Source: an uncultured Spirochaetales bacterium (GTDB lineage Bacteria > Spirochaetota > Spirochaetia > CAZPZF01). Taken from it: 10,019 nucleotides of DNA. Positions 1 through 10,019 of this stretch are shown piece after piece (position 1 is the stretch's first letter; every line of letters begins with the position of its first letter). The stretch is taken from contig CAZPZF010000121.1 in NCBI GenBank assembly GCA_964590705.1, positions 1 through 10,019 on the forward strand, given 5' to 3'. The position numbers and the translations under genes were made by a program. The notes under the pieces are model-generated. The model was not told the origin of the DNA. It saw only the letters and a program-made list of their open reading frames with translations, and did not search any database.

Positions 1-1168
1 CCTGGGAGCGTCGAATCTCATCATCGGCGCGGGTCCCACCCTCTACTTCATCGGTTGCGCCGTCTTTCCCCTCGTTTCCGGGCTGCTCACCGACGGACGG
101 GGAAACAAGAAACGGGCCGTCATCCTGACCCACCTTTTTCCCGCGGTGACTACGATCCTTCTGGGACTCTTCCTCAATCTCTTCGGAACAGGAGGGGAAC
201 CAGAAACGGGGCGCGTCGTCATTCCCCTCTTTCTGACCGGCTACGCAGTCTTTTCCATGGGAATCGGCATGCTGCTCCCAGTCTGGCAGAACTACCTCGT
301 CACGATCTTCTCTCCGCAGTCGAGCGTTCCGGCCCTTGCGGTCATGATGATCGCCCAGAGCGGCTCGAAGCTCGGAAGCAGTCTCATCATCCAGGAATTC
401 GTGAAACGGTATGGTTTCGCGGTGGCTCCGACCTCGGTCTTCTTCGTCATCGTAGGCACTCTCTTCACCGTCGGCAGCCTCTGTTTCGTCATCACCCGCG
501 AGCGCGGAACGGAACCAGGTGAGCGGGGAGAACCGCGCCGGCCGCCTCTCGAAGCGCTCCGGACCGTTTTCCGGAACAGGAACTTCCTCCTCTTCCTGGG
601 AAACGAGTTCGAGTCGAGCGCGGTGACCGGCATCCTCGCCTTCTACGCCACATACGCCACAGGGTATCATGCCGTCGCCCCGGATGTGGGAGCGGGGCTC
701 TTCGTCGCCCTCAACCACGCCGGCGCCATCGTCACCAATATCGCGCTCGGCTGGTTCGGATTCCTCTCCCTAAAGGGCAAATGCGTCCTCTCCAAAGCGC
801 TCACCCTCGCAGCGGTCGCCATCCTGGTGATCGGAAGCTCGACAGCTCCGTTCCTCGTCGTTAGTCTCCTCTTGGGAACGGCGCGCGCCGTACGCTGGCT
901 CATCTACGCCCCGGCCGTTAAACAGATATCGGGGAGCAAGGATGCCACCGTTTTCTTCTCCGTAGCCCCCATCCTGACCCTGCCGCTTAGCGCGGGGATC
1001 CCCCTCCTGGGAGGGAAGATTCTCGACAGTCTTTCGAATCTGGGGGCGGGCGCCTACAGGATCGTCTTCTGCTGCATGGCCTTCTTCGTCGTTCTCGCGT
1101 TGATCTCGAACCTCCTGACCGATTTCGGCGGCCAGAGCGGTCAGCGGGAAGAACCCGCTTCGCCGTAG
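1..1168 (+). CDS. MFS-type transporter, 5'-truncated by the window edge (reading frame opens at position 2)
   Basis: The frame starting at position 2 is open from the window edge to the stop at 1166-1168. The translation is multi-pass hydrophobic and contains a cytoplasmic loop 'GLLTDGRGNKKRAVIL' matching the MFS motif A (G-x-L-a-D-r-x-G-r-k). Third codon positions are G/C-rich like the other genes. The 146 start in the ORF track is a GTG inside a longer open frame, so the real start lies upstream of the window. Confidence 0.8.
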   Translation, partial: LGASNLIIGAGPTLYFIGCAVFPLVSGLLTDGRGNKKRAVILTHLFPAVTTILLGLFLNLFGTGGEPETGRVVIPLFLTGYAVFSMGIGMLLPVWQNYLVTIFSPQSSVPALAVMMIAQSGSKLGSSLIIQEFVKRYGFAVAPTSVFFVIVGTLFTVGSLCFVITRERGTEPGERGEPRRPPLEALRTVFRNRNFLLFLGNEFESSAVTGILAFYATYATGYHAVAPDVGAGLFVALNHAGAIVTNIALGWFGFLSLKGKCVLSKALTLAAVAILVIGSSTAPFLVVSLLLGTARAVRWLIYAPAVKQISGSKDATVFFSVAPILTLPLSAGIPLLGGKILDSLSNLGAGAYRIVFCCMAFFVVLALISNLLTDFGGQSGQREEPASP

Positions 1169-1190
1169 CCCGGGGATACCCGCACGAGGC

Positions 1191-3185
1191 TCAGTCCGCG
1201 TATTCGGAAAGCGGGGTCGTAGACACCGGCTTCCTGAAAAGGGAGAAGAGGATCCCTAGAATGACGCAGTTGATCACGGACGCCGCGGCGAACAGGTTCC
1301 ACCGGGGATTCCCCGAAGCCACGCTTCCGACGTACGAAAAGAGCTTCAGGCTGATCGTATAGGCCTCATCGTTGTCAAGAAAGAGGAGCGGGGCCATGAA
1401 TCCGTTCCACGCCGAGAGAAACGCCATCATCATCGAGGTGGCTATGGCGGGCATGCAGATCGGGAGGAGGATCCTCGTCATGTACCGCACTCCACCCATT
1501 CCCTCCAGCAGCGCGGTCTCCTCTATGGAACGCGGCACCCCGTCCAGGAAGGCCTTCATGGTGAAGAGGCTGAAGACCACCGTCTGGTTCAGGTAGATGC
1601 AGACGAGTGGAACATATGTGCCGATCAAGCCCATGCCGCGGAAGATCCCGTAGAGGGGGACGAGGGAGTGCATGCCGCCGAGCATTCCCAGCGCTTGGAC
1701 AAAGGTGAGGAAGCCGTACACGAAGCGGTCGCTCTTTCCCGAAAGCCAGACCGCGGTCGGGAAGGTAAAGAGGGGGATGAGCAGGGCGGTCGCTCCCGCG
1801 ACGATCGTGGTATTCAGGAAATAGCGGAATATCGATTCCTGGGTGATCAGCCTGATGAAATTCTTTCCCGTGAGGAATCGGGGGATCAGCCTGTCCACAT
1901 AGCAGGCGCTGACGCCTGAGAAGCTCATCCACAGGAGCATGAAGATGATGAGGAGGGTCGATACGCAGAGGAGCAACGCGGTCGTCCAGTGGGAAAAAGC
2001 GTAGACCCCGCGCCTGATCGCACCGGGTTCCGGCGGTCGGCGGAACAGGAAGGCCCCCGCCGCGAGAACCGACAGGATGACCGCCGGATGGAATCCCTGA
2101 AAAAAACCGTTCCGCGATACAGCGACAACCATGAGGATGAGCTCTCCCGCGGCAGCGGGCGCCAGCGCTTTGGGCAGGAACGCGGTGACTGTGTACGCAG
2201 CTGCCCACAAAGGTCCGAAGCGCCCTCCGAGGAAGAGGTGAAAGACCGCGCAGAGGAGGGAAAGCATGCGGGACGGTTCCATGGGAAAAGGCCTGCGCCT
2301 GCCGCCCGATTTCCGCCTTCTGATGAGGAGCCACACCGACATGGCCGCGAGGATCCCGATCGAGAGGATCACCGAGTAGGCAGAGACGGCGCCGAAATCT
2401 TCCTCGCCGAAGAAAAGATCGTAGAGATAGATACCCGCGGTTGTCGTGGCCCCCAGGATGGACCGTTCCGTGATCCCGGAGACCAGGGGAGGCCCACCCG
2501 CGGTGAAGATGTGCAGCAAGGTGAATTCCTTGAGCCCCTTGATGAAGGTAAGGACGCCCATCGCTAGAAGCGTCTCCTTGACCGCGGGGGAGAATATCAC
2601 CGTGACGATATCGCCCCACCTCGCGCCGTCTAGCCGCGCCGCGTCGATCGTTTCCGCGCGCACCTTTCTGATGGCGCCCAGGATGACGAAAGCCGTGAGG
2701 GGAACGGTCATCCAGAGGCTCACCCAGAGAGCGGAGAGGAAGCTCCCGGCCGGGTCGGTCATGAGATTGATCTCGGCCCCTGTGAGCCGGGACAGGAGCG
2801 ATCTGCCGCCGTTTCCATGGATCAGCGCCCTCCAGAGGGGAGCCGCGATGTAGACCGGGATTCCCCACGGAACGAGAAGCACCCCGTAGAGAAGGGACGA
2901 CCCCCTGCCGGGCCTGGCGAGAGCGGCCGCGCACAAAAAACCCATCGCGAGGGACAGCGCGGTGTTCGCCGCGGCCCACAGGGCGGTCACCGACACGCTG
3001 TAGAGGAAACCCCGGTCAGAGAGGAGATCGCGGTAGTTGTCCAGGCCAGCACAGCTCCTCTCATCGTACGTATCGTGGAAAAAGGAGCCGTACACGGCGC
3101 TCGCGAAGGGTGCGATCCCGACCAGGAGGATCAGCAGAAGGAGGGGGATGATGAGGGTATCGGGTTTCGAAATGGATCGGCGCAT
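1191..3185 (-). CDS. Fused two-domain ABC transporter permease: a MalF/UgpA-like half plus a MalG/UgpE-like half in one 664-aa polypeptide
   Basis: ATG at 3185-3183. The protein has at least 12 predicted hydrophobic spans. It carries two separate 'EAA' permease signature loops: 'ETIDAARLDGARWGDIVTVIFSPAVKETLLAMG' in the N-terminal half and 'IEETALLEGMGGVRYMTRILLPICMPAIATS' in the C-terminal half. The two halves are joined by a basic linker (RRRKSGGRRRP). This is the last gene of the minus-strand sugar operon. Confidence 0.88.
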   Translation of the reverse strand: MRRSISKPDTLIIPLLLLILLVGIAPFASAVYGSFFHDTYDERSCAGLDNYRDLLSDRGFLYSVSVTALWAAANTALSLAMGFLCAAALARPGRGSSLLYGVLLVPWGIPVYIAAPLWRALIHGNGGRSLLSRLTGAEINLMTDPAGSFLSALWVSLWMTVPLTAFVILGAIRKVRAETIDAARLDGARWGDIVTVIFSPAVKETLLAMGVLTFIKGLKEFTLLHIFTAGGPPLVSGITERSILGATTTAGIYLYDLFFGEEDFGAVSAYSVILSIGILAAMSVWLLIRRRKSGGRRRPFPMEPSRMLSLLCAVFHLFLGGRFGPLWAAAYTVTAFLPKALAPAAAGELILMVVAVSRNGFFQGFHPAVILSVLAAGAFLFRRPPEPGAIRRGVYAFSHWTTALLLCVSTLLIIFMLLWMSFSGVSACYVDRLIPRFLTGKNFIRLITQESIFRYFLNTTIVAGATALLIPLFTFPTAVWLSGKSDRFVYGFLTFVQALGMLGGMHSLVPLYGIFRGMGLIGTYVPLVCIYLNQTVVFSLFTMKAFLDGVPRSIEETALLEGMGGVRYMTRILLPICMPAIATSMMMAFLSAWNGFMAPLLFLDNDEAYTISLKLFSYVGSVASGNPRWNLFAAASVINCVILGILFSLFRKPVSTTPLSEYAD

Positions 3186-3195
3186 TTGTTATAAC

Positions 3196-3221
3196 AGCTT
3201 CCCGGGTTCTCCCGGGAAGCT
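3196..3221 (-). promoter_or_regulatory. Perfect 11-bp inverted repeat (AGCTTCCCGGG-ttct-CCCGGGAAGCT) forming a stable stem-loop between the lipoprotein stop and the permease start. It could act as an intra-operon attenuator or mRNA-stability element.
   Basis: Read directly from the sequence: 3196-3206 is the exact reverse complement of 3211-3221, separated by a 4-nt loop. It sits in the 49-bp gap between the stop codon at 3235-3237 and the start at 3185. On the operon (minus) strand it is followed by UGUUAUAACAAAUG rather than a U-tract, so it is not a canonical intrinsic terminator. Confidence 0.5.
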
Positions 3222-3234
3222 TTAACCTCTCTTT

Positions 3235-4665
3235 CTAGAAGCGGAGGATGATCTTCGCGACTTGCCGGACCGCCTTGATCCCGTCGGGAACGAGTTTCGC
3301 GTCCTTGTCCCAGACGAGGATGAGTGGCCAGGCGTCCGCGGGTAGTTCCGCGTCTCCCTGGAACATGGCGAGGATCACGTCCTCGTTGTCGTGAAGCTGC
3401 CGGGAATCGAGCTTCACCGTGAATCCGTCAGCGGCCACAACTTCCACGGTGTAGCCCTTCTCGGCGGCCGCGGCGTCGTAGGAGAGGATCGACCTGTCCA
3501 TCTGCTTGTGGGGCATGTACTGAGGGTCGTCTGCGTAGGCAAGGAGCAGGTACAGGGGAATGCCGGTGTAGGAGAGGACCTCGTTGGTCTTCCTGTTGAG
3601 GTACTGCACCGTACGGGGATGGCAGCTCACGCCGCTCTGCACGGTCTGGCGGTCGAGAACCGCGGAGATCCGGCCCTCGATCCCTAGGGAGAATTCCCGA
3701 TAGGGTTCGCCCATGATCGCGATCCGTTTCACCATCCTGACCGAACTGTGGCCCTGGATATTCGGAATCGACGGGCCGACCTTTACAGTCCTGATATACC
3801 CCGGATCGAGCGGGAGGTATTCACCGTCCATCCTGAAGGCGAGGATCCAGACGCCGTCGGCCCTGTCCACGAAATCGCCGGCGCTGAAACTCATCTCGTA
3901 GCCGTCCATGGCCGCGAAGGTGATGGTCGAGTCTTTTCCGAGCTGCACGAAGCTCGACAGGAATGGGTAGAGTTCCACGCCACCGTAGGCGTTGGTGTAG
4001 GTGGTTCCCGCCGAGGTGGTGAAACTCCCCTTGCCCTCGAGGTAGTACACGGAGGACTCCAGGTCCTCGAGCGTGAAACTCTTCTTTTCGCCGTTGACAA
4101 CGATCTCGAGGGTGAAGACCTCGGACTGCGAGGTATCGGCGCCGAGCCCCAGCTCGATGGATACGACGTCGCGCACCCACAAAGTTCCGGGAACCGTGCC
4201 GACGATGTTCGGGGTCGTGGTCACGCCGGCCTCGTTGTCGCTGAGGTACAGGGCATCGGGGTCGTACTCGGCGGTGTTGAAGGTCACCGTGTACCCGTCC
4301 CTTCCGGTCACGGTGATGTCGTACCCCTTCTCCCACAGGGCGGAGTCGAAGAGGAACGGATGCTTGGCGTCCTCGCCGTCGGCCATGGCTGCGAGGTACC
4401 AGAGAGGCATACCCTTGAAGAGCACCCGCTCGCCCTTGCGCTCGAGGGTTATCTCCCGGTAATGGCTCGCGTGCTTCTGCGCCTCAACGAAATAGGCGGC
4501 GTCGACCGTCTCCTCGCGCACGCCGCTGATGACGATCTCCCAATCGCCCGCGCCGGAAGCGCCGGGCCCCGTGGCGCATGAGGAGAAGAGGGCAGCGCTC
4601 CCGGCGAGAAGGATCCCGAGGAGAATGGCTGCAATAGATGGAACCACCGAACGACGAGTTGTCAT
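3235..4665 (-). CDS. Lipoprotein (477 aa) made of three tandem ~130-aa repeats. Probable accessory or substrate-binding component of the ABC importer; otherwise hypothetical.
   Basis: I placed the start at the internal ATG 4665-4663, which is preceded by AAAGGAG with an 8-nt spacer. The track's upstream GTG at 4983 would add 106 residues with no ribosome-binding site. The N-terminus 'MTTRRSVVPSIAAILLGILLAGSAALFSSC' is a signal peptide with a lipobox-like L-F-S-S-C. Each of three internal repeats shows G-[MVI]-PL-[WY]-x-LL, then DGY-x-[VM]-[TS]-F, then D-[AV]-x-[LI]-LA-x(4-8)-G-x-[LP], then a [VI]-[KR]-x-[VI]-x-x-I tail. Confidence 0.8.
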   Translation of the reverse strand: MTTRRSVVPSIAAILLGILLAGSAALFSSCATGPGASGAGDWEIVISGVREETVDAAYFVEAQKHASHYREITLERKGERVLFKGMPLWYLAAMADGEDAKHPFLFDSALWEKGYDITVTGRDGYTVTFNTAEYDPDALYLSDNEAGVTTTPNIVGTVPGTLWVRDVVSIELGLGADTSQSEVFTLEIVVNGEKKSFTLEDLESSVYYLEGKGSFTTSAGTTYTNAYGGVELYPFLSSFVQLGKDSTITFAAMDGYEMSFSAGDFVDRADGVWILAFRMDGEYLPLDPGYIRTVKVGPSIPNIQGHSSVRMVKRIAIMGEPYREFSLGIEGRISAVLDRQTVQSGVSCHPRTVQYLNRKTNEVLSYTGIPLYLLLAYADDPQYMPHKQMDRSILSYDAAAAEKGYTVEVVAADGFTVKLDSRQLHDNEDVILAMFQGDAELPADAWPLILVWDKDAKLVPDGIKAVRQVAKIILRF

Positions 4666-4781
4666 AAAACGCTCCTTTTCATCATACGAATCCCGGATGC
4701 CCGCGGCGCGATCCGCATGGGACCCGGTCACAGATCCGGCGTCGGGGTGAACCCCACGCTCGTTGCCCGCGCCGGCCGCTC

Positions 4782-6269
4782 TCACATATTGGCGTCTATC
4801 ACCGCCTGACCCTGCCGTAGGGTTTCCTCGACGGTCAGCTGCCCCTCGAGGGCGAACCGGAGAAGTTTCCACATGGTGTTCTTGAAAACGGCGTATCCCC
4901 GTTCCGGGGGAATGGGCGTGCCCGTATCCGCGCTGTACCGGAGGACGGGATAATAGGGATTCCGCGCCTTGACGATCTCCCACGCCCGCTCGTCGGCCGG
5001 CAGCTTCGCCATTTCCGCCGTGAAGCGCTGCTGAACCCCTATTCCGCAGAGATACTGAATGAGGCGGCGGGCGAGCACCGGGTTGCGCGTCTTCCGCGGA
5101 ATGGCGAAGGCCTTGAAATCGAGGACCGGAGAAACGGGAAGACCGGTACGGTCGTTCATCGGATAGGGGGAGCCGGAAAAGGGAATGCCCAGCTCCAGGA
5201 AATCGGGGATGCTGTAGGAACCGGAGAGGATCATCGCCACGTTGCCGGCGACGAACTCGGCGATCATCGCGTCCCGCTCCATCTCGGCCAGGTATCCCAG
5301 GGATTTGAGGCGGAGGAGGTATCGGATGGCCTCCCGTGTCGGGCTGTCATCTATGCGGACCGACCCGTCTGCCTCCAGGAACGGGATCTTCCCAAAGGAG
5401 ACCTGAAACGGAACGAGCCAGTAGGCGGAATAGACGTTCCAGCTCATGGGCACGACCCCGGTTCCGGCTATCCGCGCCGCGATCCTCTCCATGTCAGACA
5501 AGGTCCACGAGGACGCGGCGGGTTCCCGCACAAGCCTCGGATTGGAGAAGAGGAGCTGGGAATCGAAATAGAAAGGAACAGCCCAGACCTTGCCCCCGGC
5601 GCTGAACGAGAAAAGCCCCTTGGAGGTGATCGTTTCAGGAACGAAGGAGTCCACGTTCTGGATCGCCTTGGCCTCGACGAGGGCGGGGATGTAATCCGAT
5701 TGGACCATGATCACGTCGGGCGGTGTGCCTCCCCCGCGGAGCACGGAGAGGAGCTTGGAGTCGGTCTTGGGAACCTCGGTCACCTTGACCCTGATGCCAT
5801 GCAGTTCCGCGAAGCGGGCGATCTCCCGTTTCAGGAGGGGGACCCCTTCCCAGCTCACCCAGACCTCGACATCGGCGGCCGGCGCCTCCTCGCCGTATAC
5901 CCGGATCGTCTTGACGCCGGCGATCCGCCAACCGTCTCCCTCCAGGTCGAATTCCGTGCCTCGGGGAACAAGATACCAGCGGGAGAACCGATCGACCAGA
6001 TCGTCCCCCGCCAGGGTCCGCGATCCCGTTCCGGAGACCTCGACCCGGTACACTGAAATGAAGAGGGGAAGTAACTCATCCGCGGAGATCCCCCGGACCA
6101 ACGAACCGCCGACCGGCACGAGGTAGAGGAGATCGGCGATATCGTTATGGGAGATCGCCGCGCGGGGAGTTCCGTTGACAATGAGATCCAGGGCAGGCAG
6201 GGGAAAAGCGCAAAAAGCAACGAGGATAAAAGATAGAATGGCCCTGCGGCTTCCGATGGGGAATTTCAC
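4782..6269 (-). CDS. ABC transporter extracellular solute-binding protein, family 1 (MalE-like carbohydrate binding), with an extra ~120-aa N-terminal module
   Basis: The C-terminal ~380 aa show typical family-1 solute-binding-protein features: after the N-terminal module come 'EVWVSWEGVPLLKREIARFAE', 'GKVWAVPFYFDSQLL' and 'VAGNVAMILSGSY'. I placed the start at GTG 6269-6267, preceded by GGAAAGGAAGAGG and giving a clean signal peptide 'MKFPIGSRRAILSFILVAFCAFPLPA'. The track's 6377 start is a TTG, has no ribosome-binding site, and gives 36 hydrophilic residues before the signal peptide. Confidence 0.82.
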   Translation of the reverse strand: MKFPIGSRRAILSFILVAFCAFPLPALDLIVNGTPRAAISHNDIADLLYLVPVGGSLVRGISADELLPLFISVYRVEVSGTGSRTLAGDDLVDRFSRWYLVPRGTEFDLEGDGWRIAGVKTIRVYGEEAPAADVEVWVSWEGVPLLKREIARFAELHGIRVKVTEVPKTDSKLLSVLRGGGTPPDVIMVQSDYIPALVEAKAIQNVDSFVPETITSKGLFSFSAGGKVWAVPFYFDSQLLFSNPRLVREPAASSWTLSDMERIAARIAGTGVVPMSWNVYSAYWLVPFQVSFGKIPFLEADGSVRIDDSPTREAIRYLLRLKSLGYLAEMERDAMIAEFVAGNVAMILSGSYSIPDFLELGIPFSGSPYPMNDRTGLPVSPVLDFKAFAIPRKTRNPVLARRLIQYLCGIGVQQRFTAEMAKLPADERAWEIVKARNPYYPVLRYSADTGTPIPPERGYAVFKNTMWKLLRFALEGQLTVEETLRQGQAVIDANM

Positions 6270-6363
6270 GATCCTCTTCCTTTCCAAATACGGGGGGCTC
6301 AGCCGTTTCCCGCTGAACCGTTTCGGTCCTGTTCCATAGCGTGGCGCCGTAGGATACAGGACT

Positions 6364-6393
6364 CGGAAGTATCTCAATGACGAACGGAAGTAT
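6364..6393 (-). promoter_or_regulatory. Two direct repeats CGGAAGTAT(n)TCAAT spaced 21 bp (two helical turns) apart; candidate regulator-binding sites upstream of the transporter operon
   Basis: Read directly: CGGAAGTAT occurs at 6364-6372 and at 6385-6393, each followed within 1-3 nt by TCAAT. The second copy overlaps the putative -10 of the minus-strand promoter. Confidence 0.35.
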
Positions 6394-6417
6394 GCATCAA
6401 TAACGCTGTCTGGTCAA
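6389..6417 (-). promoter_or_regulatory. Candidate sigma70-type promoter for the sugar-uptake operon: -35 TTGACC, 17-nt spacer, -10 CATACT (read on the minus strand)
   Basis: The reverse complement of 6412-6417 is TTGACC and the reverse complement of 6389-6394 is CATACT, with exactly 17 nt between them. This would put the transcription start near 6381 and give a ~110-nt leader before GTG 6269. The -10 is a weak match (4/6). Confidence 0.3.
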
Positions 6418-6441
6418 GGGAAGGGATGTGCGAGCCTTCCC
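6418..6441 (-). other. Stem-loop GGGAAGG-(10 nt)-CCTTCCC lying 24 bp downstream of the hydrolase stop codon; possible partial terminator or processing site
   Basis: A 7-bp GC-rich inverted repeat is read directly from the sequence. It is not followed by a U-tract on the minus strand, so terminator function is doubtful. Confidence 0.3.
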
Positions 6442-6464
6442 GTCCGCGTTGGCCCCGCTGAATT

Positions 6465-7742
6465 CTACGCGGGCCGGCTTTCCAGGCATGGAGCGCCCGT
6501 GTCCCTCCCGAGAATCTCCGCGGCCCTGCTGAAAACATGGTCAAAGGCCTCATCGACTCCCGGGCCGCAGGGGCCGTTCAGGGGAAACGGTTGTTCGTGG
6601 CTGTACGGAAAGGGAAAGTCCGATACCTCCACCCTGCCCGGGGGGCAGAAGCGGCCGAGGGTTTCGACGACTCCCGCGCCCGGCATCACCTCGTCTCCGG
6701 CTAGGGCGACAGCCCCCAACCGCGGGCCGAGTTCCCGAAACCGCGCGTTTCTGACCGCGGAGCCCTCGCGCAGGTCCAGCATGCTCCCGATGCACTGTCC
6801 AAGGCGCTGGAAACCTCCGGCGATCCGTTGGAGAAGGGATCCGGTCTCCTCCTTTGCGGTAGTCCGGCGTGCAACCGTCAATTCGCTGTCCATAAACTCG
6901 AGGAGGGCACGCTCCGCACCGCTGTCCATGATGTAACGGGAGACAGGGCGCATCAGATCCATCGTCGAACCTCCGCAGAAGAGGAAGCCCCGCGAGTGCG
7001 CGAATCGGTTCCCCGGATCCGCCATGAGGAGGATTTCGGCGAGGAGCGCTCCGATCGAGTATCCGAAAAAATCGAAGCTGCAGTCCCAGGGAAAAACCTG
7101 ATGCGCGCCGCCGGCAATCTGGTCCGTGAGGCTGATGATATCACGATAGGTTTGCAACCCGGAGAGGAGGAACCTGCCCGGGAACTCGTGGAGCCGGCTG
7201 CTGAGCGCGGCATTGATGAACGACACTTCCGTGATCCCCGGATACCGCTCCTTGCGCAGGGACGCGAGTCGCATCAGGATCCGCCTATCCGTCCAGCTTC
7301 GGGGGACCCGGTCCATATGGAAAGCGATCGGAAAGAGGATGACTCCCTTGCCCGTACGCCTGCACAGGGCCGCGGCCCAGGGGAGATACTTATCCCAACT
7401 CTTCTCGTTCAAGCCGTGGAGGAGGAAAATCGCTCCCCTCGGCTTCGGATCGCTCGCGGGAAGAACGATGTAATAGGGAAATCGGGTGTTCTCATCCGCG
7501 TCCTGAAGGGAGAACCCGTGCACATCAAGGGTGCTGTCCAGCCCGTCTTGTCGGGCGCGCTCCTGTCCGCTCCACGTCATGGGGAGAGGCGATTCGAAAT
7601 CGGAACGGAACGCCAGCTTCTTGATCGAGACATCCGAGCGGGCGTCATCCACCCCTCTCGAAGCGGCGGTACCGCTCTTCAGGGATTCGAACAGGCGTGA
7701 AAGGGAAGAGAGCGATTCGGCGTACGTTTCTTTTGGATGCAT
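6465..7742 (-). CDS. Alpha/beta-fold hydrolase (serine esterase/lipase-like), predicted cytoplasmic
   Basis: The nucleophile elbow G-Y-S-I-G sits in 'FDFFGYSIGALLAEILL'. Upstream is a block 'GAIFLLHGLNEKSW' typical of alpha/beta hydrolases, and a candidate catalytic His lies in 'FPFPYSHEQPF'. There is no signal peptide. I placed the start at ATG 7742-7740; the track's 7796 start is a TTG. AGGAG lies 13 nt upstream of the ATG. Confidence 0.78.
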   Translation of the reverse strand: MHPKETYAESLSSLSRLFESLKSGTAASRGVDDARSDVSIKKLAFRSDFESPLPMTWSGQERARQDGLDSTLDVHGFSLQDADENTRFPYYIVLPASDPKPRGAIFLLHGLNEKSWDKYLPWAAALCRRTGKGVILFPIAFHMDRVPRSWTDRRILMRLASLRKERYPGITEVSFINAALSSRLHEFPGRFLLSGLQTYRDIISLTDQIAGGAHQVFPWDCSFDFFGYSIGALLAEILLMADPGNRFAHSRGFLFCGGSTMDLMRPVSRYIMDSGAERALLEFMDSELTVARRTTAKEETGSLLQRIAGGFQRLGQCIGSMLDLREGSAVRNARFRELGPRLGAVALAGDEVMPGAGVVETLGRFCPPGRVEVSDFPFPYSHEQPFPLNGPCGPGVDEAFDHVFSRAAEILGRDTGAPCLESRPA

Positions 7743-7837
7743 ATCTTCGGTGCGACTCCTAGCTGTTGATCGTCGATCTTCATAAAGACAGACCAACCGG
7801 AGGCGCTTTCGGTTGCACGGTCTGCGTCGAATTCCCC

Positions 7838-7866
7838 TTGACAGATCCCACTAGTTGTTCTATTAT
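7838..7866 (+). promoter_or_regulatory. Sigma70-type promoter for the GntR operon: -35 TTGACA (7838-7843), 17-nt spacer, -10 TATTAT (7861-7866)
   Basis: The -35 is an exact consensus hexamer and the -10 is 5/6, with optimal 17-bp spacing. It sits in the only AT-rich island of the window, ~40 bp upstream of the GntR ATG. Confidence 0.6.
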
Positions 7867-7873
7867 TTTATTG

Positions 7874-7895
7874 TACTAATACTTTAATACATTAG
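7874..7895 (+). promoter_or_regulatory. Tandem TAATAC motifs (CTAATAC / TTAATAC, 8-bp register) bracketed by a short CTAAT...ATTAG inverted repeat, at about +1 to +20 of the GntR promoter; candidate autoregulatory GntR operator
   Basis: Read directly from the sequence. The position overlapping the transcription start fits repressor binding. It lies in the divergent region shared with the hydrolase gene. The symmetry is only weakly palindromic. Confidence 0.3.
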
Positions 7896-7903
7896 GACAA
7901 GCC

Positions 7904-8326
7904 ATGACCGCAGTGAAAAACAAGGAAGAGAATCTCTCGTTTACCCTCGATCCGAAGAGCGGAGTTCCGTACTACAAGCAGATAATGGTTCAGATCGAGA
8001 TGGCGATCGCGGACGGGAGGCTTGTAAGCGGAGATCAGCTTCCCACGGTCAGGAGCCTGGCGGTCGATCTCCGGATCAACCCCAATACCGTTGCCCGGGC
8101 GTACAGTTCCCTCGAGATCAGGGGAATCGTGAACACACAGCAGGGCACCGGAACCTTCATCAGCGACAAGAAAGTGTCCATGACCGACATCGAGCGAGAG
8201 AGGATCCTCACGGAGCTGACGGCCGAGTTTCTCGCAAAGGTCCAATCATACGGATTCACCAAGGACGACATAATAGCGTTCCTGGGCGAGCTGGGAACCC
8301 AGGACCAAGGAGGTGAGAGGAGATGA
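7904..8326 (+). CDS. GntR-family transcriptional regulator, short YtrA-like subfamily (140 aa)
   Basis: ATG at 7904 with AGGA 6 nt upstream. The N-terminal winged HTH 'VPYYKQIMVQIEMAIADGRLVSGDQLPTVRSLAVDLRINPNTVARAYSSLEIRGIVNTQQGTGTFI' matches the GntR signature. The C-terminal ~50 aa form only two short helices, the YtrA-type architecture that usually accompanies ABC transporter genes. Confidence 0.9.
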   Translation: MTAVKNKEENLSFTLDPKSGVPYYKQIMVQIEMAIADGRLVSGDQLPTVRSLAVDLRINPNTVARAYSSLEIRGIVNTQQGTGTFISDKKVSMTDIERERILTELTAEFLAKVQSYGFTKDDIIAFLGELGTQDQGGERR

Positions 8327-9486
8327 ACCCATTCACACAAAAGGCAGCGACATTCGCGAGAATTAAGAACGTGCAAAAAAAGAGCCTGGAGCGGGACTTT
8401 TCGTACAATCCGTTCGCGTTTCTCATCCTCGCATTATTTCTCGGGACCGGTGTCCTTCTCCAATACCGATTTTTAAACGATTTCGACTGGGGAAAAACCG
8501 CCTTCACCGCCGTCGGAACCATCGCGGGCGTCATCGTCATCGCCGCTATCCCTCTCTGGGTAACGGTCCTGACAATGATAGCGCTGGGCTGGCTTTCCAT
8601 GTTCGTCTGGCTGGGAAGCGGGTACTGGATCCTATTTCTCTTCATCAGCTTCGGGCTCTTCCTTTCACCCTCGTGCCAGCTCATCTTCCAGTGGGACAAG
8701 GCTGTGATCCTCAGGGTGGGGCGCTTTCATCGGATAAAAGGCCCGGGACTCTTCCTCCTCATGCCCATGGTCGACCGGATCGCCGCGTTCATCGACACGA
8801 GGATCCGGGCAACCGATTTCAGCGCGGAGAAAACGCTGACCCGGGACACGGTTCCGGTTCATGTGGACGCCCTGGCTTTCTGGATGATCTGGAACGCCAA
8901 GCAAGCGGTTCTCGAGGTCGAGAACTATCTGGAGGCGGTGGTCCTGTCCGCGCAGACGGCGCTCCGCGATTCGATAGGCAAGCACGATCTCGCAGATCTT
9001 CTCTCGGAGCGGGAACGGCTCTGCGCGGAGATCCAGAGCGCCCTCGACGCTAAGACCAATCCGTGGGGTATCACGATCCTCTCCATCGAATTCACCGACA
9101 TCATCATCCCGCAGGCTCTCGAGGACGCGATGAGCAAGCGGGCACAGGCGGAACGGGAGAAGCAGTCCCGTGTGATCCTCGGCACCGCGGAGGTCGAGAT
9201 AGCAAGAAAATTCGCGGAGGCAGCCGAAAGCTACCGCGATAACCCGACGGCCCTCCACCTGCGCGCCATGAATATGGTGTACGAGGGGATACGGCAGAAA
9301 GGCTCCATGATCATCCTCCCCTCCTCCGCACTCGACACGATGAACCTCGGCGGCGCCATGGGAACCGCCGCGTTCGCGAAGGGACTGGAGAGGGAAGGGA
9401 ACCCGGCCGACGGGCCTCAGGCCGGAGACGGCACCGGGCATGGCGGGGAAAACGGTCAGGCTGAAACCGACGAAATCGGACGATAA
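8323..9486 (+). CDS. SPFH/Band-7 (stomatin/prohibitin-like) domain membrane protein with an N-terminal polytopic membrane region (~3-4 hydrophobic spans)
   Basis: ATG at 8323 overlaps the GntR TGA (ATGA), with a strong ribosome-binding site AAGGAGGTGA upstream. Residues ~30-115 are hydrophobic spans. The SPFH core runs from 'WDKAVILRVGRFHRIKGPGLFLLMPMVDRIAAFIDTRIRATDF' to 'ILGTAEVEIARKFAEAAESY'. The C-terminal tail is Gly/acidic-rich. Confidence 0.85.
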   Translation: MNPFTQKAATFARIKNVQKKSLERDFSYNPFAFLILALFLGTGVLLQYRFLNDFDWGKTAFTAVGTIAGVIVIAAIPLWVTVLTMIALGWLSMFVWLGSGYWILFLFISFGLFLSPSCQLIFQWDKAVILRVGRFHRIKGPGLFLLMPMVDRIAAFIDTRIRATDFSAEKTLTRDTVPVHVDALAFWMIWNAKQAVLEVENYLEAVVLSAQTALRDSIGKHDLADLLSERERLCAEIQSALDAKTNPWGITILSIEFTDIIIPQALEDAMSKRAQAEREKQSRVILGTAEVEIARKFAEAAESYRDNPTALHLRAMNMVYEGIRQKGSMIILPSSALDTMNLGGAMGTAAFAKGLEREGNPADGPQAGDGTGHGGENGQAETDEIGR

Positions 9487-9503
9487 GCAGGGGGAGAAAA
9501 CCA

Positions 9504-10019
9504 ATGGTACGGATAGAAAACGTCAGAAGAGACTACGTCATGGGCGATGTCGCGGTCCAAGCCCTGAAAGGGATCAGCCTTACGGTCAACAAGGGGGATT
9601 TCCTGGCCATCGCTGGACCCTCCGGTTCGGGAAAAACGACACTCCTCAACATCATCGGCTGCATAGACCGGGCGGACGGCGGAACCATCCGGATAGACGG
9701 GGAAGATGTGGGAAAGAAGACAAAGGACGAGCTTGCCCTCTTCAGGAGAAGGCAGCTCGGCTTCATCTTCCAGACCTTCAACCTCATCCCCGTCCTGACC
9801 GCGTACGAGAACGTTGCCTTCGCCCTTTCGATCCTCAACATCCCGGCGGAGGAGGAGCGGCGGAGGACTATGGCCATCCTCGACGAGGTTGGGCTTTCCG
9901 GTATGGAGAACCGCCGGCCGAACCGACTCTCCGGCGGGCAGCAGCAGCGGGTCGCCATCGCCCGGGCCCTGGTGAAGGAGCCCCTCATCGTCCTCGCCGA
10001 CGAACCCACGGCAAACCTC
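9504..10019 (+). CDS. ABC transporter ATP-binding protein, MacB/LolD/FtsE-like, 3'-truncated by the window edge
   Basis: ATG at 9504 with GGGGAG 7 nt upstream. Walker A is 'GPSGSGKTT', the Q-loop 'FIFQ', the ABC signature 'LSGGQQQRVAIARAL' and Walker B 'IVLADEPT'. The frame is open to the window end. The antisense ORF 9533-10009 in the track is an artefact. Confidence 0.92.
   Translation, partial: MVRIENVRRDYVMGDVAVQALKGISLTVNKGDFLAIAGPSGSGKTTLLNIIGCIDRADGGTIRIDGEDVGKKTKDELALFRRRQLGFIFQTFNLIPVLTAYENVAFALSILNIPAEEERRRTMAILDEVGLSGMENRRPNRLSGGQQQRVAIARALVKEPLIVLADEPTANL

Follow-up and report, generated by a model that had tools for sequence, protein, structure and literature searches.

The described systems closest to the locus studied here concern pterin binding on the one hand and the uptake of tungstate and molybdate on the other. 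PruR proteins are Sec-exported and non-catalytic, and bind pterins in the periplasm by means of a truncated sulfite oxidase (SUOX) fold (PMC11194511). The riboswitch assigned to the molybdenum cofactor (Moco) and the tungsten cofactor (Tuco) controls many mod, tup, and moa operons and also precedes genes for Moco enzymes (PMC2408646). Regarding tungstate/molybdate uptake, the literature consulted describes three systems, namely Mod, Tup, and Wtp, and none of the described systems features a SUOX-fold component. Here, a stretch of 10,019 nt from an uncultured Spirochaetales bacterium (contig CAZPZF010000121.1, positions 1 to 10,019; the whole stretch is referred to as the window) was analyzed, in which a lipoprotein gene is located between the genes for a solute-binding protein and a fused permease, forming a triad headed by a Moco/Tuco riboswitch. 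The lipoprotein, composed of three truncated SUOX-fold (mini-SUOX) repeats, most likely represents a new class of accessory protein in a tungsten/molybdenum (W/Mo)-related ATP-binding cassette (ABC) importer. The results point to a fourth component beside the three known uptake systems, predicted to be cofactor-free, SUOX-derived, and extracytoplasmic. In Anaerolineae, it accompanies wtpAB and tupA, whereas the ABC importer to which it belongs in Spirochaetota and Thermotogota is of another kind and is preceded by a riboswitch of the tungsten-cofactor type.

Compared with the PruR proteins of Agrobacterium, Vibrio, and Klebsiella (PDB 7kos, 7kp2, 7kom, and 7rkb), the lipoprotein shares the truncated SUOX fold of approximately 135 amino acids lacking the Cys hairpin, as well as Sec-dependent export, but contains three domains instead of one. 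The partner of PruR is the cyclic di-GMP enzyme DcpA, corresponding to a signaling role, whereas the partners of the lipoprotein are a binding protein and a permease under the control of a Moco/Tuco riboswitch; no GGDEF or EAL partner was found beside the lipoprotein gene in related loci. PruR occurs in Proteobacteria, whereas the lipoprotein family occurs in Spirochaetota and Thermotogota, and sequence similarity between the two is marginal: searching the PDB sequences with the whole-family profile yielded a match to 7kom only (E 0.79), and the profile of the first repeat retrieved nothing relevant. With sulfite oxidase, SorA, and YedY (MsrP), the lipoprotein has in common the fold and the motif order D-G-Y ... 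LA-x-x-x-[DN]G-x-x-LP ... G-x-x-S-V-[KR], but it is triplicated and lacks the Cys ligand, the long hairpin, the dimerization domain, the twin-arginine translocation (Tat) signal, and the redox partner of these enzymes.

On the transport side, control by a Moco/Tuco riboswitch is shared with WtpABC, TupABC, and ModABC, and a sister family of the lipoprotein shares operons with wtpA-wtpB or is fused to a tupA-like gene. In contrast to these systems, the triad combines a MalE-like binding protein, extended by an extra N-terminal domain, with a fused pair of MalFG-like permeases, and neither an ATPase gene nor a TOBE domain is present. A MalE-family binding protein and a MalF/MalG-type permease are also characteristic of CUT1/MalEFG importers, whose association with sugar catabolism and sugar regulators was, however, not observed for the triad. 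By analogy of architecture only, the arrangement resembles the NEAT-domain heme relay (IsdA/B/C/H and BslK, leading to IsdEF), in which a small domain likewise occurs in one to many copies, in lipoproteins or SLH-anchored proteins whose genes adjoin or precede those of a binding protein and a permease dedicated to a scarce cofactor or metal. Fold and ligand are unrelated, however, and a domain-to-domain transfer would be hypothetical in the case of the lipoprotein.

Repeats, Fold, and Export of the Lipoprotein

The following features were assigned to the lipoprotein gene:

3235..4665, minus strand: triple mini-SUOX lipoprotein gene; open reading frame (ORF) of 476 amino acids plus stop
4576..4665, minus strand: signal peptide with lipobox LFSSC (Cys30), read from the sequence
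4132..4548, minus strand: repeat 1 (R1), residues 40-178; least conserved copy, related to R3 by hhalign
3694..4131, minus strand: repeat 2 (R2), residues 179-324; copy matched by Pfam Oxidored_molyb
3238..3693, minus strand: repeat 3 (R3), residues 325-476; related to R1 and R2 by hhalign, conserved in the alignment

More than 150 homologues were found, nearly all of them originating from uncultured Spirochaetota. To compare the repeats, an alignment of 51 homologues was split into sub-alignments of R1, R2, and R3, which were then compared by means of hhalign. R1 and R3 matched with a probability of 99.5% (E 1.1e-22), followed by R2 and R3 with 93.7% (E 1.9e-7), and R1 and R2 with 88% (E 3e-6). 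BLASTP of the lipoprotein against itself detected no repeats; the triplication is real and visible at the profile level only. R2 and R3 are far better conserved than R1 among the 51 members. The motif DGY/DGF recurs as D123-G124-Y125, D254-G255-Y256, and D413-G414-F415, each being present in 48-51 of the 51 sequences. Invariant features of R2 comprise TTSAG in the truncated hairpin, DGY, R292, H306, S308, and M311, while those of R3 are C348-H349, Y366, G368, P370, D379, P385-H386-x-Q388, W452, and K464. The original prediction, made from the DNA letters alone, had described a lipoprotein consisting of three tandem repeats with a series of ordered motifs, and all of this was borne out.

The same prediction had likened the repeats to the core of sulfite oxidase and YedY. 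Pfam PF00174 (Oxidored_molyb) indeed matches R2 (residues 214-324) with a score of 35.8 bits (cut-off 24; E 7.9e-9). R1 alone and R3 alone, as well as the N-terminus of the binding protein, gave no Pfam match, but R1 and R3 are related to R2 in the profile comparison described above. The AlphaFold model of the lipoprotein is confident (predicted local distance difference test, pLDDT, 88), and Foldseek retrieved chicken sulfite oxidase, SorA, nitrate reductase, YedY, and PruR proteins with it. As judged from this model, the domains have a SUOX/YedY-type fold. In the alignment with chicken sulfite oxidase, G220 of R2 corresponds to G207, and the 22-residue hairpin bearing Cys185 of the enzyme is reduced in R2 to a short turn with the invariant TTSAG. 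R2 thus has no Mo-ligating Cys at a hairpin tip, the hairpin itself being truncated.

The only Cys of the mature lipoprotein is C348 ('VSCH') in R3, as had been noticed before. It had also been considered a possible counterpart of the Moco-ligating Cys, which is not supported: alignments of R1 with R3 and of R2 with sulfite oxidase place C348-H349 where helix 1 ends, ahead of strand 3, and not at the tip of the hairpin between strands 3 and 4. Together with the invariant H386, Q388, and H306, the C348-H349 pair looks like a metal or cofactor site. Residues 345-349 of R3 (GVSCH) are encoded at positions 3619-3633 (minus strand) of the window. In 12 of the 51 members, G345 is replaced by Cys, resulting in a heme-c-like CXXCH motif. 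A heme c in R3 was considered and not adopted; most members have a single Cys, and some feature a C-x-x-H spacing.

Concerning export, a lipobox was found in 34 of the 51 family members, the remainder having ordinary Sec-type signal peptides. A twin-arginine-like motif, as in the Tat signal expected of periplasmic SUOX-family Moco enzymes, occurs in one of the 51, namely the window protein alone (T-R-R-S-V-V; positions 4651-4662, minus strand; residues 2-5, TTRR). Since it is not kept in the family, this motif is probably due to chance.

These findings bear on whether the family might after all represent genuine periplasmic molybdo- or tungsto-enzymes of the YedY/MsrP or SorA kind, in which R2 would carry Moco and R3 heme or a metal, with the riboswitch tying expression to the supply of cofactor. 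Such an enzyme would be in line with the PF00174 score above the cut-off, the database name 'molybdopterin-dependent oxidoreductase' given to the family, the invariant C348-H349 and the CXXCH variants, and the occurrence of Moco riboswitches before Moco-enzyme genes (PMC2408646). We nevertheless consider it highly improbable, because the hairpin is truncated without a Cys being present there, no other Pfam domain and no dimerization domain was detected in the lipoprotein, and no redox partner (heme b5, cytochrome c, or YedZ/MsrQ) is encoded beside the gene, the neighbors always being the binding protein and the permease. Furthermore, 50 of the 51 members feature Sec or lipoprotein signals, whereas periplasmic Moco enzymes are loaded with their cofactor in the cytoplasm and subsequently exported via Tat. 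Judging from the signal peptides, it is therefore very unlikely that the family carries Moco as a prosthetic group. Based on the truncated hairpin, the lack of a conserved Tat motif, and the lack of a dimerization domain or an electron-transfer partner, the lipoprotein is probably non-catalytic, as had been supposed from the outset.

The Moco/Tuco Riboswitch and the Importer Genes

The operon comprises, apart from the lipoprotein gene, the following features:

6389..6417, minus strand: sigma-70-like promoter candidate (TTGACC, 17 nt spacer, CATACT), from a consensus scan
6261..6380, minus strand: Moco/Tuco riboswitch aptamer, Rfam RF01055, variant without the P3 hairpin, 72.8 bits
4782..6269, minus strand: solute-binding protein, 495 amino acids, GTG start, signal peptide; Pfam SBP_bac_8 and SBP_bac_1
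5886..6191, minus strand: extra N-terminal domain of the binding protein, residues 27-128, beta-rich, from the family alignment
1191..3185, minus strand: fused double permease, 664 amino acids, two BPD_transp_1 halves, the first MalF/GlcT-like and the second MalG/GlcU-like

The RF01055 match in the window covers the full length of the model (1-135) and exceeds the gathering score of 36 by a wide margin (E 2.1e-15). The same family was also detected in six other loci, including Thermotogaceae and Sphaerochaeta, with 36-66 bits. A covariance model built from these hits was used to scan the related loci; of the 63 having upstream DNA, 62 carry the riboswitch before the binding-protein gene, and L065 (region 6300-6560) is the one exception, where none was detected. 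In related loci, conserved 'translation' extends upstream of the start of the binding-protein gene, a pattern that indicates a conserved RNA, and the gene of the window actually begins with the GTG at 6269. Within the aptamer alignment, 91% of the cells are paired, and double changes occur at 15 of the 25 pairs. In total, 236 double-change cells were counted, as compared to 69 +/- 8 in shuffled alignments and 37-61 in slid controls. The P3 positions of the model are deleted in the Rfam alignments, all copies are devoid of P3, and the linker in its place measures 12-14 nt in 69 of the 71 copies. This is the variant that, according to Regulski et al. 2008, tracks the organisms and genes of tungsten-cofactor metabolism (PMC2408646).

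The promoter candidate agrees with the consensus in 9 of 12 positions, which is not significant alone; its placement suits a transcription start before the aptamer. The Shine-Dalgarno sequence, situated 6 nt ahead of the GTG start (6269), coincides in part with the 3' strand of P1 (GGAAAGGAAG), so that the riboswitch is likely to act as a translational OFF switch of the operon.

A second P3-less Moco/Tuco riboswitch was observed in two related loci (L002:13454-13598, plus strand, and L046:12991-13114, minus strand), in both cases directly upstream of a gene for an NAD-type aldehyde dehydrogenase of approximately 545 amino acids adjoining the triad. Being independent of the cofactor, the aldehyde dehydrogenase may replace a tungsten aldehyde oxidoreductase under cofactor scarcity, and its riboswitch fits a cofactor-sparing regulon.

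On the minus strand, the binding-protein gene lies upstream and the permease gene downstream of the lipoprotein gene. The core of the binding protein (residues 130-495) belongs to the MalE family, Thermotoga MalE being retrieved with E ~1e-33 in a PDB profile search; hhalign with E. coli MalE gave 99.2%. Weak SBP_bac_11 matches were obtained for 11 of 50 binding-protein family members. The structural model of the binding protein reached a pLDDT of 92. Its N-terminal domain (residues 27-128) is kept in the family and shows an order of secondary-structure elements like that of the mini-SUOX repeats; the comparison of this domain, as a candidate fourth mini-SUOX copy, with the repeats was not significant (hhalign, best 28.6%), and no Pfam match to it was found in the 50 members. 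No ATPase gene is present within the window operon. An ABC ATPase fragment with Walker A and LSGGQ motifs at the right window end is located on the opposite strand, behind GntR and SPFH genes.

To determine how the triad is embedded elsewhere, one genome per species was scanned, yielding 80 loci, mostly from Spirochaetota and several from Thermotogota; the hosts are all uncultured, except for Ca. Marispirochaeta associata. In the survey of gene neighborhoods suggested in the original prediction, the genes for binding protein, lipoprotein, and fused permease lie side by side in essentially every locus of sufficient length, while the flanks vary. Clustering of the flanking ORFs over the approximately 80 loci revealed no conserved ATPase, moa/moe/mod gene, or W/Mo enzyme, the synteny being lineage-specific only, and likewise no glycoside hydrolase, sugar-catabolic gene, or sugar regulator conserved beside the triad. 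Nor are the window's DUF6051, MFS-like, GntR, and SPFH genes conserved together with the triad.

The triad had initially been taken for an ABC sugar-uptake operon, in which case it would represent an ordinary CUT1-type carbohydrate importer with the lipoprotein as a carbohydrate-binding accessory and an incidental riboswitch match. The nearest relative of the binding protein being Thermotoga MalE, the resemblance of the permease halves to MalF/MalG and GlcT/GlcU, an operon without an ATPase gene, as in many CUT1 systems, and the occurrence of related domains in large surface proteins with SLH, CARDB, or Big_2 domains would all be compatible with a sugar importer. However, a riboswitch match of full length, twice the gathering score, backed by covariation and kept in nearly all loci with upstream DNA is hardly incidental, the sugar genes expected beside such an operon are not conserved, and the sister family described below is linked to tungstate transporters. 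Sugar uptake is thus regarded as a far-fetched explanation, and the initial designation of the operon was abandoned.

The Anaerolineae Sister Family and Multi-Copy Proteins

A large sister family of the lipoprotein, comprising lipoproteins of 480-660 amino acids, was found in Anaerolineae. The first two domains of its members are counterparts of R2 (hhalign, E 7.5e-21) and R3 (E 1.9e-33), and further domains of the 'HPKKG' type resemble R1 (E 2.6e-14). In all six contexts analyzed, the genes directly after the sister gene encode an SBP_bac_11 binding protein and one permease. Of these, three binding proteins were scanned and identified as WtpA (NCBIfam TIGR03730, 287-312 bits; cut-off 242.75), and a single permease was scanned, which is WtpB-like. 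A metagenome scan provided 80 further loci of the Anaerolineae type, 57 of them having at least 1.1 kb of downstream sequence, and in 57 out of these 57 a WtpA homologue comes next, followed by WtpB.

Linkage to Tup was also observed. In two loci, a mini-SUOX domain forms the C-terminus of a TupA-like tungstate-binding protein (L083:11521-12828 and L085:13577-14950), and the gene for a TupB-like permease comes next. The tupB-like gene of L083 is followed by an ATPase with TOBE domains, while the downstream genes of L085 have no clear Pfam assignment. Regulators with a molybdate-type PBP_like domain are encoded near sister-family loci. A third locus (L086:2360-12597) comprises, in this order, genes for a GntR/PBP_like regulator, a ThiS-like protein (MoaD), moaA, moaC, moaE, a mini-SUOX lipoprotein, wtpA, wtpB, a TOBE protein, tupA, tupB, and an ATPase-TOBE protein.

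Invariant residues of the Anaerolineae family are C236-H237, H193, and H267, with relatives featuring C-x4-C-H or a single C-H. Based on motif comparison, H193 and H267 are taken as the putative counterparts of H306 and H386 in the window protein.

Beyond these two families, a search of 1.8 billion representative sequences with the A1 profile (51 members) yielded 792 clusters. Many of these contain proteins of 1000-3100 amino acids with 4-9 copies of the domain (P0268, P0270, P0290, P0309, and others), and the large proteins that were scanned also possess SLH, CARDB, or Big_2 domains, indicating that they represent cell-surface arrays of the mini-SUOX domain. It is conceivable, though rather doubtful, that the mini-SUOX arrays as a whole, i.e., lipoproteins, binding-protein fusions, and SLH-anchored surface proteins with 4-9 copies, form an extracellular capture-and-relay module for the pterin cofactor itself.

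Proposed Capture of Tungsten or Molybdenum Versus Possible Cofactor Salvage

A cofactor-sensing riboswitch in Spirochaetota and Thermotogota and co-operonic tungstate transporters in Anaerolineae represent two independent lines of evidence that tie mini-SUOX proteins to the supply of W/Mo. Taken together, both lines make a capture protein of a W/Mo importer the most economical reading, and we give an even chance to the lipoprotein being a cofactor-free, extracytoplasmic capture protein of this kind. The proposed unit would consist of four parts, namely the Tuco/Moco riboswitch, the binding protein of MalE fold, the lipoprotein, and the fused permease, and would be powered by an ATPase encoded elsewhere. 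With plentiful pterin cofactor, the aptamer would be bound, P1 would form, the ribosome-binding site would be hidden, and the operon would be off, whereas the operon would be expressed when the cofactor is short. The lipoprotein, predicted to be a Sec-exported, lipid-anchored, and cofactor-free binder with three truncated SUOX-fold (PruR-like) domains, might then bind, in the periplasm, whichever W/Mo species is scarce, tungstate or molybdate being the likeliest candidates, and hand it over to the binding protein for import.

Several observations weigh against capture of a W/Mo oxyanion. The demonstrated ligands of the SUOX fold are pterins only, namely Moco in the enzymes and neopterin or monapterin in PruR (PMC11194511). 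The assignment of the P3-less aptamer to Tuco stems from a correlation and not from a measurement in Regulski et al. 2008 (PMC2408646). No riboswitch was found with Rfam in three Anaerolineae loci, and the two lines of evidence thus originate from different lineages. Comparison of the binding protein of the window with WtpA revealed no similarity (hhalign probability 0.9%), no NCBIfam match to WtpA, TupA, or ModA was obtained for it, and the ModB/WtpB matches of the permease remained far below the cut-offs. In addition, several positions of the MalE ligand site (E141, D236, W467, and R471) are kept and invariant in the binding protein, and these sugar-site positions appear to suit an organic ligand better than a bare oxyanion.

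The same observations can be accommodated by cofactor salvage, the main rival, to which we give roughly half the probability of capture. According to this explanation, the triad imports Moco, Tuco, metal-free molybdopterin, or cyclic pyranopterin monophosphate (cPMP) released by other cells in anoxic habitats; the three PruR-like domains would take up the pyranopterin extracellularly and deliver it to the MalE-like binding protein, and the riboswitch would sense the imported molecule. A riboswitch preceding an importer is a pattern known from the thiamine pyrophosphate (TPP), cobalamin, and tetrahydrofolate (THF) riboswitches and vitamin transporters. The proven pterin ligands of the fold speak for salvage, as do a MalE-like binding protein with aromatic and acidic cleft positions kept and unrelated to oxyanion binders, a MalFG-like and not Wtp/Tup-like permease, the absence of moa, moe, and mod genes adjoining the triad in the approximately 80 loci, and the Sec-dependent export, which implies that the ligand must be acquired outside the cytoplasm. 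However, the sister family is paired with the oxyanion binders WtpA and TupA, and at least one such genome also harbors moaA, moaC, and moaE beside it, so that salvage would be unneeded for that family. The pterin pocket of PruR is formed by N102, Y104, and W160 plus a Pro-Trp motif (PMC11194511), and in the lipoprotein, as far as sequence alignments reveal, Tyr is retained within the D-G-Y of R1 and R2 and is F or Y in R3, Asp takes the place of Asn, a Pro-Trp motif is lacking, and the invariant Met311 of R2 occupies the position of the Trp in the sulfite oxidase motif VKW, which is equated with W160 of PruR. Moreover, free Moco is very labile, and no bacterial Moco importer was found in the literature.

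No account of the lipoprotein family, of a SUOX-fold partner of Wtp or Tup, or of a MalE-type importer controlled by a Moco riboswitch was found in full-text literature searches, in agreement with the initial supposition that the component had not been described. In public annotation, members of the family are named 'molybdopterin-dependent oxidoreductase', 'DMSO/TMAO reductase YedYZ catalytic subunit', or 'hypothetical', and the partner is named 'maltose-binding protein'. The names 'molybdopterin-dependent oxidoreductase' and 'maltose-binding protein' probably mislead metabolic reconstructions of anaerobic digesters and sediments, which are the habitats of these organisms. If the ligand is an oxyanion, the lipoprotein would represent a new step in trace-metal scavenging. 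In the case of a pterin cofactor, the first bacterial salvage route for Moco or Tuco would be at hand, and the triad would be the first bacterial importer of Moco, Tuco, or molybdopterin, shut off by the same molecule via the riboswitch.

Among the remaining genes of the window, a DUF6051 protein (Pfam E 1e-102, with a weak thioesterase/alpha-beta-hydrolase signal) is encoded at 6465-7739 on the minus strand, i.e., directly upstream of the riboswitch and on the same strand. A separate unit on the plus strand (7904-10019) consists of a gene for a GntR-family regulator (140 amino acids) overlapping the start of an SPFH/Band-7 membrane protein gene (387 amino acids), followed by the ATPase fragment, which runs off the window. 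At the other end, a membrane ORF of 340 amino acids (146-1168, plus strand) matches only the C-terminal part of the major facilitator superfamily (MFS) profile MFS_1, with 29.6 bits and thus below the cut-off of 33.4, and may represent a truncated or wrongly started MFS transporter gene.

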